DNA of 64,000 nt, from the NCBI GenBank assembly GCA_044345405.1, contig JBIJBE010000003.1, positions 8,427 through 72,426 on the forward strand. Direction: 5' to 3'. Positions 4,396 to 64,000 of this stretch are shown piece by piece. A model generated the notes under the pieces. That model made no database searches. It saw only the letters and a list, made by a program, of their open reading frames with translations, and had not been told where the DNA came from. The DNA comes from Bdellovibrionota bacterium (lineage in GTDB: Bacteria > Bdellovibrionota_C > UBA2361 > OMII01). The number at the start of each line of letters is the position of its first letter. Within the stretch, counting starts at the first letter, position 1. The position numbers and the translations under genes are program-made.

Positions 4396-4519
4396 GGGAG
4401 GGCGACCGTCCCCGGTCGCCGAAATGTTTACGTGTCGTACACTACATTCGACCTATGCGAACACGGCGGTCGAGGACCCCACTTCGCTACGCTACGAGGG
4501 ACATGCTGACCGCCCTCCC
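4396..4519. repeat. Copy A of a dispersed REP/MITE-like palindromic element (GGGAGGGCGACCGTCCCCGGTCGCCGAAA ... CTTCGCTACGCTACGAGGGACATGCTGACCGCCCTCCC)
   Basis: Terminal inverted repeats GGGAGGGCGACC / GACCGCCCTCCC. The same family recurs at 17480, 33027, 43003, 49027 and 50298. This copy sits 27 bp downstream of the bioB stop. Confidence 0.8.
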
Positions 4520-26769: not shown

Positions 26770-26849
26770 TCTCGTCTGTCGATAGCAAGAGAAAAGGCCA
26801 CCACTACTCCTCGTAGTGGTGGCCTTCGTCATTTTTCAGGGATGTCGAC

Positions 26850-33026: not shown

Positions 33027-33084
33027 CCGGCGACCGTGATCCCCCTTCGCCAAGGCTTCGGGGGACAAGCTGGTCGCCCTCCGG
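33027..33084. repeat. Copy C of the palindromic repeat family (CCGGCGACCGTGATCCCCCTTCGCCAAGGCTTCGGGGGACAAGCTGGTCGCCCTCCGG)
   Basis: It shares the GGCGACC/GGTCGCCCTCC ends and the GGGACAAGCTG core with copies D, E and F. It lies about 75 bp downstream of the LON-N gene stop. Confidence 0.7.
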
Positions 33085-33157
33085 TTGTGCGACCCGTGAC
33101 ATCGGAGGGCGCGCATTCCTGCGCGCCACCTGCATGTTTGTTCGGATGTTTATATTG

Positions 33158-35482: not shown

Positions 35483-35506
35483 GGACTAATCTTCCTCCCC
35501 CGGCTC

Positions 35507-36955
35507 TTGACGGAGCCGGGGGAAGCCGCAAGTATAGGCCCATATTCGTTTCAGCGGCGTACAGGGAGATTAGGGATGTCAGAGCAGGTGCGAAAGCTGC
35601 CTCAGCAGGAAGCGGTTCAGGGTGAGGCAGCTGTTCACGGCGAGGCCGCGGCGCGAGAGCTCCCGGTGAAGGATATTCGCTCCCTCATGACCGAGATCCG
35701 AGAGCGAATCAAGGCGGACGTCGAGGGAAACCGAGACAAGCATCGCGAGCTCTCTCGCACAGCTCCCCGCTTCGCTAAGGACGGGAACGTGAGGGTTGGA
35801 GACCTTCAACACTCAGAGGAGCTCCGGTTCGTTAATCAGAACTACGCCTACGACTCTCAGCTCACCCCAGCGGTGATCCCAAGCCACCGACGTGGACCTC
35901 TCGGGAAGCTTGTTCCCCTCTTTAAACGGGTCTCCCGCAAGATCGTTCGTAAACTCTTCCTCGCCGATTACCTCAACGCTGAGCGCGCGTTCTCGGAGCA
36001 CCTTGTTCGGCATCTGAATGAGATCGGTCGATATATCGACGCGCGGGACAACGACGTGATGCGAAAGATCGATCGGATCGATGATGAGAAGAGCGCGGCG
36101 ATCCTCGCCTTGCAGCAGGATATGCAGTCCCTCACACGGGATCGTATCGGCGCCCTTGATGAGATGATTCGAGGGTTAGAGGGAATCGTCAACAACTTCC
36201 CTCGCTACACCGATCCGAATCCGCCGCGTGTTCAAGAGAGCTCGCAACCGCTCACAGTTCCCGATCCTTCCTACCTCCTCCTTGAGAATCGGTATCGGGG
36301 AGGGGAGGCTGAGATTGAGCGCCGTCTCTCGATCTATCCTGAGATCTTTAAAACAGCTCCCGCGACGGTGCTTGAGATGGGATCCGGTCGGGGCGAGCTT
36401 CAGCGCCTCTTTAAGAAAGCGGGCGTTCCATCGTACGGCGTTGATCTCGACACCGTGATGGTGAATGTTGCGAACGCCGCTGGGTGCGATACGAAGTTTG
36501 GTGATGGGATTGCGCATCTTCGTTCGCTTCCCGACGCGTCCCTCGGCGGTCTTATCGCGATTCAGGTGGTAGAGCATCTCACCCGCTCGCAGTTGATGGA
36601 GTTATGCGAGCTCGCGAAGCGAAAATTAAAGCCGGGATCGAAGATCGTGTTTGAGACGATCAACCCGCAATCGCTCCTCGCGCTCTCCTCAAACTATTTC
36701 CGCGATCCAACCCACATCTGGCCGATGCATCCCGATACCCTCGGATATACGGCGACCCTTGCAGGTTTAAAGATCGTAGAGACCCGGTACCTCTCGCCGG
36801 TGGCGCCGAATCATCTTCTCAAGGAGATTCCGGTCGATCCGAACCATCCTCCTACCGTGGTCGATACCGTTCACCGCATCAACCAGAACATCGAGCAGTT
36901 GAATCGTTTGATCTACGGCTTTCAGGACTACGCCCTGATCCTTGAGGTAGCGTAA
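35507..36955 (+). CDS. Class I SAM-dependent methyltransferase with a long N-terminal coiled-coil region. The alternative start is the ATG at 35576 (GGGAGATTAGGG RBS).
   Basis: SAM-binding motif I VLEMGSGRGEL plus motif II/III segments. Confidence 0.6.
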   Translation: MTEPGEAASIGPYSFQRRTGRLGMSEQVRKLPQQEAVQGEAAVHGEAAARELPVKDIRSLMTEIRERIKADVEGNRDKHRELSRTAPRFAKDGNVRVGDLQHSEELRFVNQNYAYDSQLTPAVIPSHRRGPLGKLVPLFKRVSRKIVRKLFLADYLNAERAFSEHLVRHLNEIGRYIDARDNDVMRKIDRIDDEKSAAILALQQDMQSLTRDRIGALDEMIRGLEGIVNNFPRYTDPNPPRVQESSQPLTVPDPSYLLLENRYRGGEAEIERRLSIYPEIFKTAPATVLEMGSGRGELQRLFKKAGVPSYGVDLDTVMVNVANAAGCDTKFGDGIAHLRSLPDASLGGLIAIQVVEHLTRSQLMELCELAKRKLKPGSKIVFETINPQSLLALSSNYFRDPTHIWPMHPDTLGYTATLAGLKIVETRYLSPVAPNHLLKEIPVDPNHPPTVVDTVHRINQNIEQLNRLIYGFQDYALILEVA

Positions 36956-42987: not shown

Positions 42988-43002
42988 TCGAGCCTGGTAC
43001 CA

Positions 43003-43126
43003 GGGAGGGCGACCGGCCTCCCCCTTCGCCAAAGCTTCGGGGACAGGTCGGTCGCCGAAAGCTTGCGATTAGCGGGAAATCTTTGCCTGGCGTATCCATA
43101 CGGCGACCGGGGACGGTCGCCCTCCC
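43003..43126. repeat. Copy D of the GGGAGGGCGACC palindromic repeat family. It is composite, with two ends in inverted orientation around GCCGAAAGC.
   Basis: CAGGGAGGGCGACCGGCCTCCC ... CGGCGACCGGGGACGGTCGCCCTCCCAGG. It begins 16 bp after the dapE stop codon. Confidence 0.8.
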
Positions 43127-49026: not shown

Positions 49027-49085
49027 GGGAGGGCGACCAGGATCCCACTTCGCTACGCTACGAGGGACAAGCTGGTCGCCCTCCC
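49027..49085. repeat. Copy E of the palindromic repeat family (short form: GGGAGGGCGACCAGGATCCCACTTCGCTACGCTACGAGGGACAAGCTGGTCGCCCTCCC)
   Basis: Perfect 13-bp terminal inverted repeats. It lies 14 bp after the OMF stop codon, in terminator position. Confidence 0.85.
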
Positions 49086-50171: not shown

Positions 50172-50297
50172 GGTGTCATGCGCCCCTGCTGTTGTCTTTC
50201 TTACGAAAGCACAGCAGGGGCCGTCGACACTTTTTAGGTTTTCTCGACGGTTGATTCTACTTCACCAACATTCTCTTTTCATTGTAGCCCGGAATAA

Positions 50298-50449
50298 GGG
50301 GAGGGCGACCGTCCCCGGTCGCCGAAAAAGCCACGTGTGTTTCAAGGTATTCGCCATTCGCAACACGGCTTGTGCCCCATAGCTTTAGCGACGGGGTACG
50401 GTCAGGATCCCCCTCCGCTAAAGCTACGGGGGACAAGCTGACCGCCCTC
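50298..50449. repeat. Copy F of the GGGAGGGCGACC palindromic repeat family (long form, with an internal hairpin CCCCATAGCTTTAGCG/CGCTAAAGCTACGGGG)
   Basis: Its left end is identical to copy A (GGGAGGGCGACCGTCCCCGGTCGCCGAAA). It lies immediately downstream of the DAHP synthase stop. Confidence 0.8.
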
Positions 50450-60586: not shown

Positions 60587-61789
60587 ATGGATAGAGTAGA
60601 TCGTACGCAGTCGTGTCGGTACGGTGAGATTGTTGATCTGGAGCGTGCTACCCTACCGGGAGCGTTTCGCCCGGCGATAAAGGGGCTCTCCGTTTCTGTC
60701 GAGCAGTTGCCCCACTATGTTGAGGAATCGCTAGCAATTGTAGGCTCGCGCTCAAGGAAAGACATCGAGATATTCCGAAATCTTCTGACAATCAAAGTGC
60801 CTGTGGAGTCCCTTCTTCAAGAGGTCGCCGCTAGCTCTGATGTTTCTATTTCAGAAATACCCGCCGCGTTGTGTCGGATCTGCAACGCGTGGGTTGAGGT
60901 CGCGCCCCAGCATGATGTCGCCGCCCGAATGCCCATCTCTTACGTGGTGGGAAGGCTCGTTGACCTTTGGGTGTCTCATCGTGACGCGAATCTGTCAGAT
61001 GACGAGCGTCGCACCATTCCGTCAAATGAGGCAACACGGGAGGGCTTTGTGAAGAACGACCTTACCGCTAAAGCTCTCTTTGACGCGATAAGTCGGTTAA
61101 GCGCTCCAGCTATGCTTGCCGCTGGCTCCATCGCGCAGCGAAGAGTAGAGCGAATCGGACGGGTAACGATGATAGGTCAGGACCCGTTTAAGGTTTTCTT
61201 CGATACACTTTTTGTCTTTGATCCAGAAAAGGCGAACGTCAACAAGTCGACATCAGAACAGTTTATTCCCTATCTGTGGTCTCGTCTCGAGGCCCGTTGG
61301 TTGGGGTCCGATCGAAAGAGGTGTGAGGATAAGGCTGTTCGATCCGTCAGGGGACGTGAAGGAGAGCTTACCGACATGGCCTCGATGCTGGAGGACAAAG
61401 GGGCACGCGACTTTACGGCATCCGTAGATCGTCGGGATGAGTTCGAGTGGACACGCGCCGCGCTTGAAAACGCGTTGGTAGATGGCGCTTTACGCCGCGG
61501 TGATTATGAAGCTATCCTTCAGTATTTTGGTCTAGGCGGTGCCCAAACAGGGCATGGAGCGCTGAAAAGTTCCGCTCTCTCCATAAAGACGAAGGCTCAA
61601 CGGGGAATCGATCATTTTAAGCGCTACCTCAAGGCCCAAGAGGCCGAGCGTGATGATATCGAATGCCTGTCTTCACAACCGGGTGATTGTGAGACCTTTG
61701 CTCGTTATCCAAAACTCTCTGGAGCTGGTTCTCATCCTAGGCTCATGAGGCGAGCGGAGCAGCGGGCGCAACGTCCAACTGTTTGGTAG
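60587..61789 (+). CDS. Hypothetical protein (about 400 aa from the ATG at 60587 with an AGAGGAG RBS; the six-frame ORF is open from 60494). A 5'-truncated paralogue begins at 63613.
   Basis: A long ORF. Nucleotides ~60961-61350 are ~85-90% identical to 63613-64000. Confidence 0.45.
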   Translation: MDRVDRTQSCRYGEIVDLERATLPGAFRPAIKGLSVSVEQLPHYVEESLAIVGSRSRKDIEIFRNLLTIKVPVESLLQEVAASSDVSISEIPAALCRICNAWVEVAPQHDVAARMPISYVVGRLVDLWVSHRDANLSDDERRTIPSNEATREGFVKNDLTAKALFDAISRLSAPAMLAAGSIAQRRVERIGRVTMIGQDPFKVFFDTLFVFDPEKANVNKSTSEQFIPYLWSRLEARWLGSDRKRCEDKAVRSVRGREGELTDMASMLEDKGARDFTASVDRRDEFEWTRAALENALVDGALRRGDYEAILQYFGLGGAQTGHGALKSSALSIKTKAQRGIDHFKRYLKAQEAERDDIECLSSQPGDCETFARYPKLSGAGSHPRLMRRAEQRAQRPTVW

Positions 61790-61972: not shown

Positions 61973-62230
61973 TCAGTCCCGCTCAAAAAGCATCTGCTGT
62001 CGCTTCGGCTTGATCTGCACCGGCATTCCCGCGGGATAATTTCCAGAGAAGCAAGCGTCGCAATATTTACCATGGGTTGACTCAACGGCGCGGTAGAGCC
62101 CCTCGGTTGAGAGGTAGGCGAGGGAGTCAACACCTATGTACTCCGCGATCTCCTCAATGGTGTGCTTGGAGGCGATAAGCTCGTGCTTATCGGGGGTATC
62201 GATACCGTAGTAGCACGGGTTCTTCGTCAC
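61973..62230 (-). pseudogene. purF: 3' remnant of amidophosphoribosyltransferase (purF), C-terminal ~85 aa only. It is truncated where the REP array begins.
   Basis: PurF C-terminal signature GIDTPDKHELIASKHTIEEIAEYIGVDSLAYLS...CDACFSGNYP (the 4Fe-4S Cys ligands). No upstream PurF sequence exists, since the fragment runs straight into the tandem repeats at 62223. Confidence 0.6.
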
Positions 62231-62387
62231 TGGTGCCAGGCTCTTTTTAAGCGTTTCGTCACTGGTTCGTCACTGGTGCCAGGCTCTTTCTGGTTCGTCA
62301 CTGGTGCCAGGCTCTTTTTAAGCTGCTCGTCACTGGTGCCAGGCTCTTTTTAAGCGTTTTCGTCACTGGTGCCAGGCTCTTTTTAAG
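62223..62387. repeat. Tandem array of five full copies plus one partial copy of a 29-32-bp REP-like unit (TCGTCACTGGTGCCAGGCTCTTTTTAAGC)
   Basis: Directly visible direct repeats. An inverted single copy (GAGCCTGGCACCAGTGAC) lies at 63591-63608 on the far side of the transposase gene. Confidence 0.9.
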
Positions 62388-62420
62388 CAACTCTCTGCCC
62401 CGTTCCCCGATTACACCTGC

Positions 62421-63395
62421 ATGCGTAATCCAAGATTTCTCGTTCCCGGAAAGATACACTTCATCACCTTTCGAACTGAGGAGGGGCTTCCGTTTGTCCC
62501 TCTGCGATTCATGAATATTCTTATTCGGTCCGCCCTCGCCAGAGCCCAAAAGCTCTACCCTGTTAAAATCATCTGCTTTGTTGTTCAGGCTAACCACGTA
62601 CACCTTCTCGTACGGGTGACAAACCCTCAGGATGTTTCGAGCTTTATCGGGTACTTCAAAGCGGAGAGTGCTCACTACCTCAACCGTCTCCTCAACCGAC
62701 GACAACGAACTGTTTGGGCTCCACGTTTCGACAGTCCTGCCGTGTTGGACATAGACAAAGCTCTTGAACTATTCGCCTACTGCTCCCTAAATCCCGTAAA
62801 AGACGGACTAGTTGCGTCAATGCGGGAGTATCCTGGGCTTAGCTCATACCCGTATCTCCTGAGAGGAGAACAGGTAATCCCTGCGAAATCGATCCCAAGA
62901 GATAAAGTTCGCCCATTAGCGGATCCAACTAATCCCCAACGAGAGAACAAGAGCCTGTCTGAATATTTCAGCTCCGATGATTTCCAAGACCTTTCTATTA
63001 CACTCGCCCCGGAAGAGCTTCGACTAGCATTTCCATCAACCAAGGCCTCTACCGCGGAGGAGTTTCATAAAACGCTTCTACAAACCATCTCCAAGTACGA
63101 GCAGATTTATCTCGCTGACCAGGCTGGAGCAGCGCCACTCGGAGTCCCCAAGCTTCTCGCGATCTCCCTCCTTGCTCAACGGAATCCTCCCATCAAAGGT
63201 AGGAAAATGATCTGTCTCTCTTGTTGCAACGACCTTCGCCAGGCGTTCATATCATCATTCAGGCACATAAAAGCGCTGTGCCGGGAAGCCTTCATGAAGT
63301 GGAGCGCCGGACTCATGGTGCCTTATCCGCCCGGGATGTTCGCTCCCCATCCCCCTAGGATCGCGAATTTCATTCCTCAGACTAACTTCTCATAA
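62421..63395 (+). CDS. REP-associated tyrosine transposase (RAYT; IS200/IS605-like Y1 HUH transposase), 324 aa
   Basis: HUH motif NHVHLLV, the catalytic-Tyr region and the RAYT-specific Y-x-x-x-NPVKDGLV motif (FAYCSLNPVKDGLV). The gene is flanked by REP copies in inverted orientation. Confidence 0.7.
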   Translation: MRNPRFLVPGKIHFITFRTEEGLPFVPLRFMNILIRSALARAQKLYPVKIICFVVQANHVHLLVRVTNPQDVSSFIGYFKAESAHYLNRLLNRRQRTVWAPRFDSPAVLDIDKALELFAYCSLNPVKDGLVASMREYPGLSSYPYLLRGEQVIPAKSIPRDKVRPLADPTNPQRENKSLSEYFSSDDFQDLSITLAPEELRLAFPSTKASTAEEFHKTLLQTISKYEQIYLADQAGAAPLGVPKLLAISLLAQRNPPIKGRKMICLSCCNDLRQAFISSFRHIKALCREAFMKWSAGLMVPYPPGMFAPHPPRIANFIPQTNFS

Positions 63396-63612
63396 GACTC
63401 TGACTTCACAGTTAACAGCGCACGCGACCCCGTTGTTCCGCTAACTCATAGTGAACAAGAGATCACGTGGCTCCTTCTGGCCAAGAGCCAAAGTTATAGA
63501 CAAAGAATGCGTGGACCGCAGCTCTAGAGCTGCAGCCTTATGGGGGCAAAAAACAAGCGCCTGACCGCATGGTAAAGCAAGGAAAGCAAGGAGCCTGGCA
63601 CCAGTGACAACG

Positions 63613-64000
63613 ACCTTTGGGTGTCTCATCGTGACGCTAATCTGTCAGACGACGAGCGTCGCACCATTCCGTCAAATGAGGCAACACGGGAGGGCTTTGT
63701 GAAGAACGACCTTACCGCTAAAGCTCTCTTTGACGCGATAAGCCGGTTAAGCGCTCCAGCTATGCTTGCCGCTGGCGCTCTCGCGCAGCGAAAAGTTGAA
63801 CGGCTCGGTCGGGTCGCGATGATGGATCAGGACCCGTTCAAGGTTTTCTTCGATACCCTATTTGTCTTTGATCCTGAAAAAGCGAACATAAACAAATCGA
63901 CCTCGGAGCAGTTCATCCCCTACCTATGGGCTCGACTGGAGGCTCGTTGGTTAGAGTCAGATAAGCGCCGCTGTGAGGCTACGGCTGTTCGCACCGCGAA
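63613..64000 (+). CDS. 5'-truncated paralogue of the 60587-61789 gene (partial, runs off the window). It may be a pseudogene or a gene fragment.
   Basis: The in-frame translation DLWVSHRDANLSDDERRTIPSNEATREGFVKNDLTAKALFDAISRLSAPAMLAAG... is ~85% identical to residues ~125 onward of the first copy. Homology starts immediately after the inverted REP. Confidence 0.5.

Follow-up and report, generated by a model that had tools for sequence, protein, structure and literature searches.

Few non-coding features are as common in bacterial genomes as repeats of the REP and REPIN type, which are known mostly through work on cultured Pseudomonas, enterobacteria and Stenotrophomonas. A REP is a short palindrome with a tag, and two inverted REPs together with the spacer between them make up a REPIN (PMC3733652, PMC3337134). 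Two REP superfamilies have been described, tagged GTAG and CGTC respectively, and CGTC REPs lack a dedicated transposase; RAYT-like genes flanked by inverted repeats that are not REPs are known as TIRtrons or TIRYT (PMC3733652). Here we describe a GGAG-tagged family that extends this kind of repeat to an uncultured lineage. In the window, by which we mean the whole stretch of DNA that was analysed (64,000 nucleotides, 64 kb), ten hairpin modules of this one family lie at six intergenic sites. The elements and their parts are:

4396-4519, unstranded: element A, long form, 27 nt past the stop of bioB (bioB on the minus strand)
4397-4420: A unit 1, GGAG followed by GGCGACCG-TCCC-CGGTCGCC
4421-4464: A linker, GAAATG...GCGAACAC
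4465-4514: A unit 2, with apical core extension and compensated stem GGCGGTC/GACCGCC, then CTCCC
17459-17499, unstranded: element B, decayed, between divergent HpcH aldolase and AhpC/TSA genes; outer pair and right arm GGGGACGGTCGCCCTCCC retained, left arm gone, GTGTGCCGGGTC tail after it
33027-33084, unstranded: element C, short form, a single core-extended unit GGCGACC...GGTCGCC-CTCC, 73 nt beyond the stop of the LON_substr_bdg gene (minus strand)
33104-33127, plus strand: solo minimal unit, 19 nt to the right of C
43003-43126, unstranded: element D, long form, beginning 15 nt past the dapE stop
43008-43056: D unit 1, core-extended
43057-43101: D linker, GAAAGC...CCATAC
43102-43121: D unit 2, minimal, GGCGACCG-GGGA-CGGTCGCC, then CTCCC
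49027-49085, unstranded: element E, short form, with perfect 12-nt arms and core extension, 13 nt past the stop of the OEP (outer-membrane efflux) gene
50299-50449, unstranded: element F, long form, its end 23 nt from the DAHP synthase stop (minus strand)
50300-50323: F unit 1, minimal, followed by the linker
50368-50396: F inverted partial core copy
50400-50446: F unit 2, core plus stem GGTCAG/CTGACC, right tag degenerate (CTCG)

Reading the sequence directly at 4396-4519 and at five other places showed that every copy listed in the preliminary description is present at its coordinates, and the grouping of copies into short forms of ~60 bp and long forms of ~125-150 bp was reproduced by a repeat search. 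The same search found that unit 1 of A and of F is identical over 26-29 nt to unit 2 of D, and that A and F share a 26-nt end whose exact reverse complement forms the opposite end of D. The 12-mer arm GGGAGGGCGACC has eight exact matches in the window, every one of them inside these elements; allowing as many as two mismatches raises the count to 17, where shuffled sequence gives 9.0 +/- 2.9, and none of 100 shuffles reached 17. The right arms of A and F read GACCGCCCTCCC and GACCGCCCTCG, that of A being offset by a compensating GGCGGTC on its inner side, and C is without the left GGGAG, its degenerate left tag reading TTTCCGGCGACC. The 33104 unit, GGAG-GGCGCGCA-TTCC-TGCGCGCC, was absent from the first list; it lies 30 nt from the upstream stop codon, and the spacer between it and C resembles the inter-element spacer of a metagenomic contig (L068, see below). 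No additional diverged unit turned up in the window when it was scanned with a covariance model based on the units. Pfam searches confirmed the flanking genes as bioB, LON_substr_bdg, M20/dapE, OEP and DAHP synthase, and A, C, D, E and F have one end 13-75 nt from the stop codons of these genes, where 14-75 bp was originally given. Placement after a stop codon, which had been claimed for the family, thus applies to these five copies but not to B, which sits between divergent genes. Nor is B the half copy it was taken for: its outer GGAGGGC...GCCCTCC pair is retained around a decayed interior.

The basic unit emerged from a scan for hairpins made blind to the family, in which stems had to be perfect over 7 bp or more and loops could measure 3-8 nt. 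One unit recurred, 27 times in all, across the window and its relatives: the tag GGAG, then a perfect stem of 8 bp with a loop of 4 nt. The hairpin itself measures 20 nt and, with its 4-nt tag, is a short palindromic stem-loop of the 20-40 bp class. Its stem has the form GGC-NNNNN/NNNNN-GCC, in which the GGC/GCC base is invariant, and the loop is TCCC, TCCT or TTCC (TCCY/TTCC). The tag is GGAG in 23 of the 27 units, with GAAG, AGAG and ACAG as variants; GTAG occurs in none of the 27, and CGTC is found at neither end of the unit.

The long forms A, D and F consist of two such units around a linker, the second unit being inverted, with loop GGGA, AGGA or GGAA and then CTCC. These elements, like the doublets in relatives, have the inverted arrangement by which a REPIN is defined, and the inversion allows the tags to pair (GGGAG/CTCCC) and close the whole element. 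The linker is typically ~42-45 nt long, ~31-37 nt in the subfamily of the related locus L151 and ~75 nt in F, where there is an extra inverted core copy; its length is conserved and its sequence partly so, and no conserved secondary structure was found in it. Terminal inverted repeats of 12-13 bp had been reported, and they are indeed present, but this understates the anatomy, since the ends of D and of a copy in another genome (L022) form a perfect inverted repeat of 25-26 nt in which each terminus is itself a hairpin. In A, F and the related locus L154 the stem of the second unit differs (GGCGGTC/GACCGCC), and the local hairpins are each perfect despite interrupted long-range pairing between the units, which indicates that it is the local hairpin that is kept intact.

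A short form is one unit with an apical loop extension of ~30 nt, which corresponds to the core of the preliminary description. The extension sits in the loop (GGA-TCCC...GGGA-CAAGC) and has an invariant UCCC/GGGA helix, and covariation is seen in the basal stem of hairpins that bear the core. Conservation of the core was found to be partial, a 27-nt version being exact in A and E and only diverged versions (64-71%) being present in C, D and F. The apex of the core (CCTTCGCC, ACTTCGC) resembles the mid-linker of other copies (ACCTTCGC in L154, L065 and L068), and on the strength of this resemblance the short forms may be collapsed doublets.

Five of the eight stem pairs vary on both sides among the 27 units (60 cells, compared with 21 +/- 3 after shuffling and 0-10 in slid controls). 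Considering that these units came from a hairpin search, their 99% pairing is partly built in by construction; what still marks them as homologues is the conservation of tag, loop, stem base and genomic position. The inner stem pairs differ among subfamilies and are fully compensated, with CGACCG, CGCGCA, CGAGCA and CGGTCR found in the window, L154, L157, L159, L022 and L068, and CCCGTC, CCTGTG and CCCGTG in L151 and L161. At syntenic sites the stems are genome-specific, CGACCG in the window, L154, L157 and L159 versus CCCGTC in L151 and L161, and both subfamilies are present in one genome, L022. The covariance model found no unit in ~50 unrelated control loci.

As RNA, the elements fold at -31 to -78 kcal/mol; relative to shuffled sequences, D, E and F have z = -4.4 to -5.4, and A and C stand out less, at z = -1.9 to -2.9. 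A role as terminators had been proposed, and the sequence does not support it: the GC-rich hairpin of an intrinsic terminator is there and the T/U tract is not. Read in the sense of its upstream gene, no copy has a T-run after it, meaning that none is a canonical intrinsic terminator, and a terminator scan calls none of D, E and F. A canonical T-run hairpin does lie near F, 60 nt away at ~50178-50245 (GCCCCTGCTGT...ACAGCAGGGGC, then CTTTTTAGGTTTT), and is conserved in L154 (18325-18390), showing that this lineage does use T-tract terminators, unlike the elements. In E. coli, REP/BIME hairpins protect the mRNA upstream of them, and by analogy a function of the present elements as a barrier to 3' exonucleases, or mRNA stabiliser, is plausible. 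Rfam gave no match at gathering score in the whole window, and at permissive E-values only chance-level matches around the elements. Pairing of GGGAGG with CCTCCC as Shine-Dalgarno and anti-Shine-Dalgarno was dropped as an idea, there being no suitably placed start codon.

Other repeats and hairpins were seen in the window. Its left edge (12-447) carries a block of ACGT-rich repeats (CACGTTCACGTTTACGAGCACGTTCACGT) in which direct as well as inverted copies are present, and a similar CACGTGCACGTTCACGTTCACGTGG run is intergenic in L157 (~14720 and ~16450-16500). A perfect 14-bp hairpin at 26794-26826, AAGGCCACCACTAC-tcctc-GTAGTGGTGGCCTT, lies between convergent ORFs and has GTAG at the foot of its loop; it is unrelated to the family. 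Between co-directional genes at 35496-35523 there is an 11-bp hairpin, TCCCCCGGCTC-ttgacg-GAGCCGGGGGA, whose sequence is conserved in L154 (3618), L157 (2061) and L159 (3623), loci with 76-83% dapE identity, making it a candidate conserved regulatory or terminator structure.

The family is not confined to this region, as would be expected of a local duplication: copies follow unrelated genes elsewhere and also occupy orthologous sites in relatives. In uncultured Pseudomonadota they follow pckA (L022), an ABC-F gene (L065) and a nuoB-like gene (L068), and these loci have no homology to the window outside the element, which argues against local duplication. L022, from a 'Proteobacteria bacterium' MAG, carries a 30-nt minimal form and a 95-nt doublet 33 nt past the pckA stop, as well as a solo unit from another subfamily, flanked by convergent genes. 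It was the only true relative among 25 loci returned by a scan of the genome collection, which does not contain the source genome, with the pattern GGGAGGGCGACC-N6-36-GGTCGCCCTCCC; the other 24 were rejected as unrelated GC-rich hairpins, mostly of actinobacteria, and a different repeat of Chitinophagaceae. The latter, GGTGAGCCGCCCCGGGAGGGCGACCCACC...GGTGGGTCGCCCTCCCGGGGCGGCTCACC, is present on at least two contigs of a Chitinophagaceae MAG (L003, 1030-1100; L004, 1005-1075) and has its 12-nt arm in common with the family by chance. A metagenome scan with the pattern GGGACAWGCTGRYCGCCCTC, which is too loose, gave at least three true contigs (L065, L068 and L095), all from one sample, among the 120 matches listed, the other 117 of which were coding-sequence noise. 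Viral contigs and plasmids gave no relevant matches to the family, and a literature search for the arm sequence returned nothing relevant. On L068 (424-470), an element unit supplies the C-terminal residues and the stop (...HFGEQECSPSGRASP*) of a histidine-kinase/response-regulator-like ORF on the minus strand, so that here the repeat reshapes the end of a protein.

Inverted doublets with a linker were found outside the window in L022, L151 (four), L154 (two or three), L159, L065, L068 and L095, and solo 20-nt units at 33104 in the window, at 7220 in L022 and at 20474 in L151. REPs and REPINs are extragenic and number tens to hundreds per genome. All copies of the present family are extragenic. 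There are 10 modules per 64 kb in the window, 4-9 per 21 kb in L151 and L154, and one or two modules in the other relatives, any copy number per genome being an extrapolation from the 64-kb window and the ~21-kb relative loci. Exact matches to dapE come solely from Logan assemblies of SRR274xxxxx runs, in which D and E are identical to those of the window.

Five syntenic loci (L151, L154, L157, L159 and L161), retrieved through dapE homologues of 74-86% identity, allowed orthologous sites to be compared. The site after dapE holds an element in the window, L151, L154 (as the minimal form), L157 and L161; no recognisable member was found there in L159, where the spacer is too diverged to define boundaries. 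The site after the OEP gene is occupied in every locus covering it, and that after the DAHP synthase gene carries a doublet in the window, two copies in L154, a solo hairpin in L151 and a remnant in L159. The elements are stable over short evolutionary distances, a relative at 98% (L169) retaining D with three changes. D is identical in Logan contigs L026-L030. L151 and L154, on the other hand, are the closest pair by dapE (86%) and yet differ in subfamily at all three sites that they share, which points to turnover or recolonisation and against vertical drift. The basal L161 has the subfamily type of L151. Moreover, element A and the DAHP copy of L154, which are non-orthologous and come from different genomes, are ~90% identical, as alike as orthologous copies. 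The simplest reading is that coexisting subfamilies displace one another time and again at a small number of gene ends, permissive or preferred, by mobility or conversion and not by vertical drift.

Taken together, the elements are probably a REP-like family of non-coding, non-autonomous palindromic repeats whose hairpins would be copied or replaced in trans, most likely by an HUH-type enzyme. The units would fold as hairpins in single-stranded DNA, where a trans-acting enzyme could recognise the shape of the hairpin along with the features that do not vary (tag, stem base, loop), and so copy or replace units within each lineage; by analogy with REP/RAYT, this putative mobiliser would most likely be an HUH Y1 transposase. 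Elements would survive only at tolerated positions, within the few tens of nucleotides that come directly after stop codons, and as parts of 3' UTRs their very stable hairpins would obstruct 3' exonucleases and not serve as canonical terminators.

Two explanations that do without such an enzyme have to be weighed against this one. The elements could be immobile cis-acting RNA elements, that is, factor-independent terminators or 3'-UTR stabilisers that are inherited vertically and kept by selection on the RNA, as their position 13-75 nt past stops, the great stability of the hairpins, their presence at the same three gene ends in relatives and the retention of pairing by compensated changes might suggest. 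We consider this very unlikely, given that T-tracts are absent, that both orientations relative to the upstream gene occur (A and F reversed, D forward), that B is in a divergent promoter region, and that unlinked copies within a genome are more alike than orthologues between the closest genomes (L151 versus L154); a linker that is conserved and yet unstructured is also hard to explain by gene-by-gene selection on RNA. The second alternative is that the elements are MITEs, internally deleted derivatives of an IS whose DDE transposase recognises the 12-26-bp terminal inverted repeats. Those termini, the size of 60-150 bp, the intergenic location and the existence of long and short forms would all fit, but there is no direct target-site duplication at any copy, and a search of the element flanks and related loci found neither a target duplication nor a clean empty site. 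Neither the window nor the related loci or plasmids yielded an IS with such ends. The termini are perfect hairpins with covarying inner pairs, which fits recognition of structure rather than of double-stranded sequence, and solo 20-nt units are not predicted by a mechanism that depends on terminal inverted repeats. A MITE origin is therefore highly improbable, and of the two types originally offered for the family, REP/BIME or MITE, it is the former (including REPINs) that agrees with tagged hairpins and inverted doublets with a linker. Integron attC sites, which came to mind since the palindromes vary in length and follow stop codons, were considered and rejected, as the ends read GGGAGG/CCTCCC without the R''/R' core sites (RYYYAAC/GTTRRRY) that bound promoterless cassettes, and in all relatives the elements are flanked by housekeeping genes in synteny; a CRISPR-like mini-array was likewise rejected, the units being inverted and not direct.

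If the elements are REP-like repeats moved in trans, a RAYT encoded in the window itself comes into consideration as the mobiliser. The features that bear on this are:

42990-43005, minus strand: copy of the RAYT-repeat core, CCCTGGTACCAGGCTC, 14/16 to CACTGGTGCCAGGCTC, overlapping the left end of D by 3 nt
62223-62402: five tandem TTCGTCACTGGTGCCAGGCTC... units (GGTGCCAGGCTC-containing), upstream of the RAYT-like gene
62421-63395, plus strand: RAYT-like gene, 324 aa (context 62223-63617), not shown to belong to the GGAG family
63588-63617: one inverted unit of the same repeat, downstream of the gene

The RAYT has the Pfam domain Y1_Tnp and matches NCBIfam REP_Tyr_transpos at 80.7 bits against a cut-off of 80. 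Homologues at 84, 67, 54 and 50% identity have the same arrangement, and in all five cases (window; L162, L163, L165 and L167) the flanking repeats are inverted and non-hairpin and have a conserved GGCACCA core. The preliminary description held that the GGAG family is distinct from these repeats, which is correct at the level of sequence; however, a RAYT-type copy abuts D, and element ends often carry GCAC(C), and the two repeats may therefore not be completely independent. The copy at D is the only one elsewhere in the window, where ~0.03 would be expected window-wide, and L169 has TCTGGCACCT at its position. An association with a second RAYT or an IS, which had been suggested for follow-up, was found neither in the five RAYT contexts nor, for IS, in the window, related loci and plasmids.

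A more specific version of the preferred explanation is that the GGAG elements are the REPIN population of the window's 324-aa RAYT, which would recognise a two-part site of GGCACC(A) and a GGGAGG-tagged hairpin, the RAYT-proximal repeats keeping only the first part. The copy beside D speaks for this, as does the presence of GCAC 1-4 nt outside GGGAGG at 5 of 11 element ends in the window and also in L022, L154 and L169, where chance would give ~2% per element end by a rough estimate. In L163 and L165, GGGGAGGGGGAG comes next after the RAYT-proximal repeats, and the 67% homologue of the RAYT (L167) comes from the same sample as the elements of L154. Aligned to the RAYT motif, element flanks score 4.78 compared with 3.89 at random sites (p = 1e-4), but a shuffled-motif control reaches 4.25 +/- 0.26, an excess of only ~2 sd, and ends of the L151 type show no resemblance to the motif (p = 0.92). 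Furthermore, no GGAG-GGC unit was found within the 15-21 kb around any of the five RAYT genes, so that neither the window's RAYT nor its four homologues is flanked by the hairpin unit as a cognate RAYT would be by its REP, and the copy at D may merely reflect different repeats gathering in one permissive spacer. The GCACC motif is thus a lead that might tie the elements to this RAYT; the link in its specific form is possible, though on balance unlikely.

The surroundings of the RAYT gene are themselves repeated. A 300-nt direct repeat, 91% identical (60962-61261 and 63612-63911), brackets the gene and its flanking repeats, and in L167 a direct repeat of ~33 nt (AACGCGGCTCAACGTGCCTC.CCATGAAGCTC; ~7350 and 8775) brackets the homologous cassette. 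From these repeats it looks as if the RAYT unit was inserted with duplication of host sequence, which would be unexpected for 'domesticated' single-copy RAYTs.

A still bolder proposal is that the family represents a third, GGAG-tagged REP superfamily, in which the enzyme would read the invariant frame (tag, GGC/GCC and TCCY), the inner five base pairs would serve as a lineage-specific, covarying 'address', and the 324-aa TIRYT-like RAYT would service the elements via GGCACC. We hold this to be quite improbable. If true, a GGAG superfamily and a TIRYT-like RAYT would together make a two-part recognition site of a sort not described for REP/RAYT, and this would explain the repeated recolonisation of the same gene ends by different subfamilies. 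Unless the link to the RAYT is confirmed, the current understanding of REP-type repeats is unchanged.

Three gene ends that carry different, fully compensated stems in close relatives amount to a natural experiment, which bears on site choice and turnover. The elements break short-read assemblies, as seen in Logan contig L029, which ends at D, and L026, which starts beside the 33104 unit just past C. In annotation they can be mistaken for terminators or small RNAs.

Among described systems, REPINs or REP doublets with their RAYTs in Pseudomonas fluorescens and E. coli (Bertels & Rainey 2011, PMC3116915, PMC3337134) are alike in being extragenic, inverted palindromic pairs around a spacer, present in many near-identical copies, with singlets as decay products, master-sequence behaviour and persistence at orthologous extragenic sites. 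The GGAG family differs from them in that its tag is GGAG and not GTAG, each unit is a perfect hairpin of 8-bp stem and 4-nt loop, doublets are closed by an outer GGGAG/CTCCC helix, some units have the ~30-nt apical extension, and no RAYT among five contexts is flanked by its units. E. coli BIMEs resemble it as mosaics of inverted REP units and conserved linker modules located at gene 3' ends or between the genes of operons; there is no sequence similarity between the two, the GGAG linkers are without a conserved fold, and the lineage is a different, uncultured one. TIRYT concerns the neighbouring RAYT: the 324-aa protein and its four homologues, with their inverted non-hairpin GGCACCA flanks, fit this arrangement better than a classical REP arrangement, and the GGAG elements are not those terminal repeats. 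The GTAG and CGTC superfamilies (Di Nocera et al. 2013, PMC3733652) share with the GGAG family stem-loops of 20-40 bp with a conserved tetranucleotide at one end, as well as the occurrence of monomers, of dimers joined head-to-head or tail-to-tail and of clusters, for the most part directly downstream of genes. In the GGAG family, unlike in these, the GGC/GCC stem base and the TCCY loop are invariant and the inner stem is free to covary, and its tag lies outside both described superfamilies: the family is new, while the kind of element is well known.
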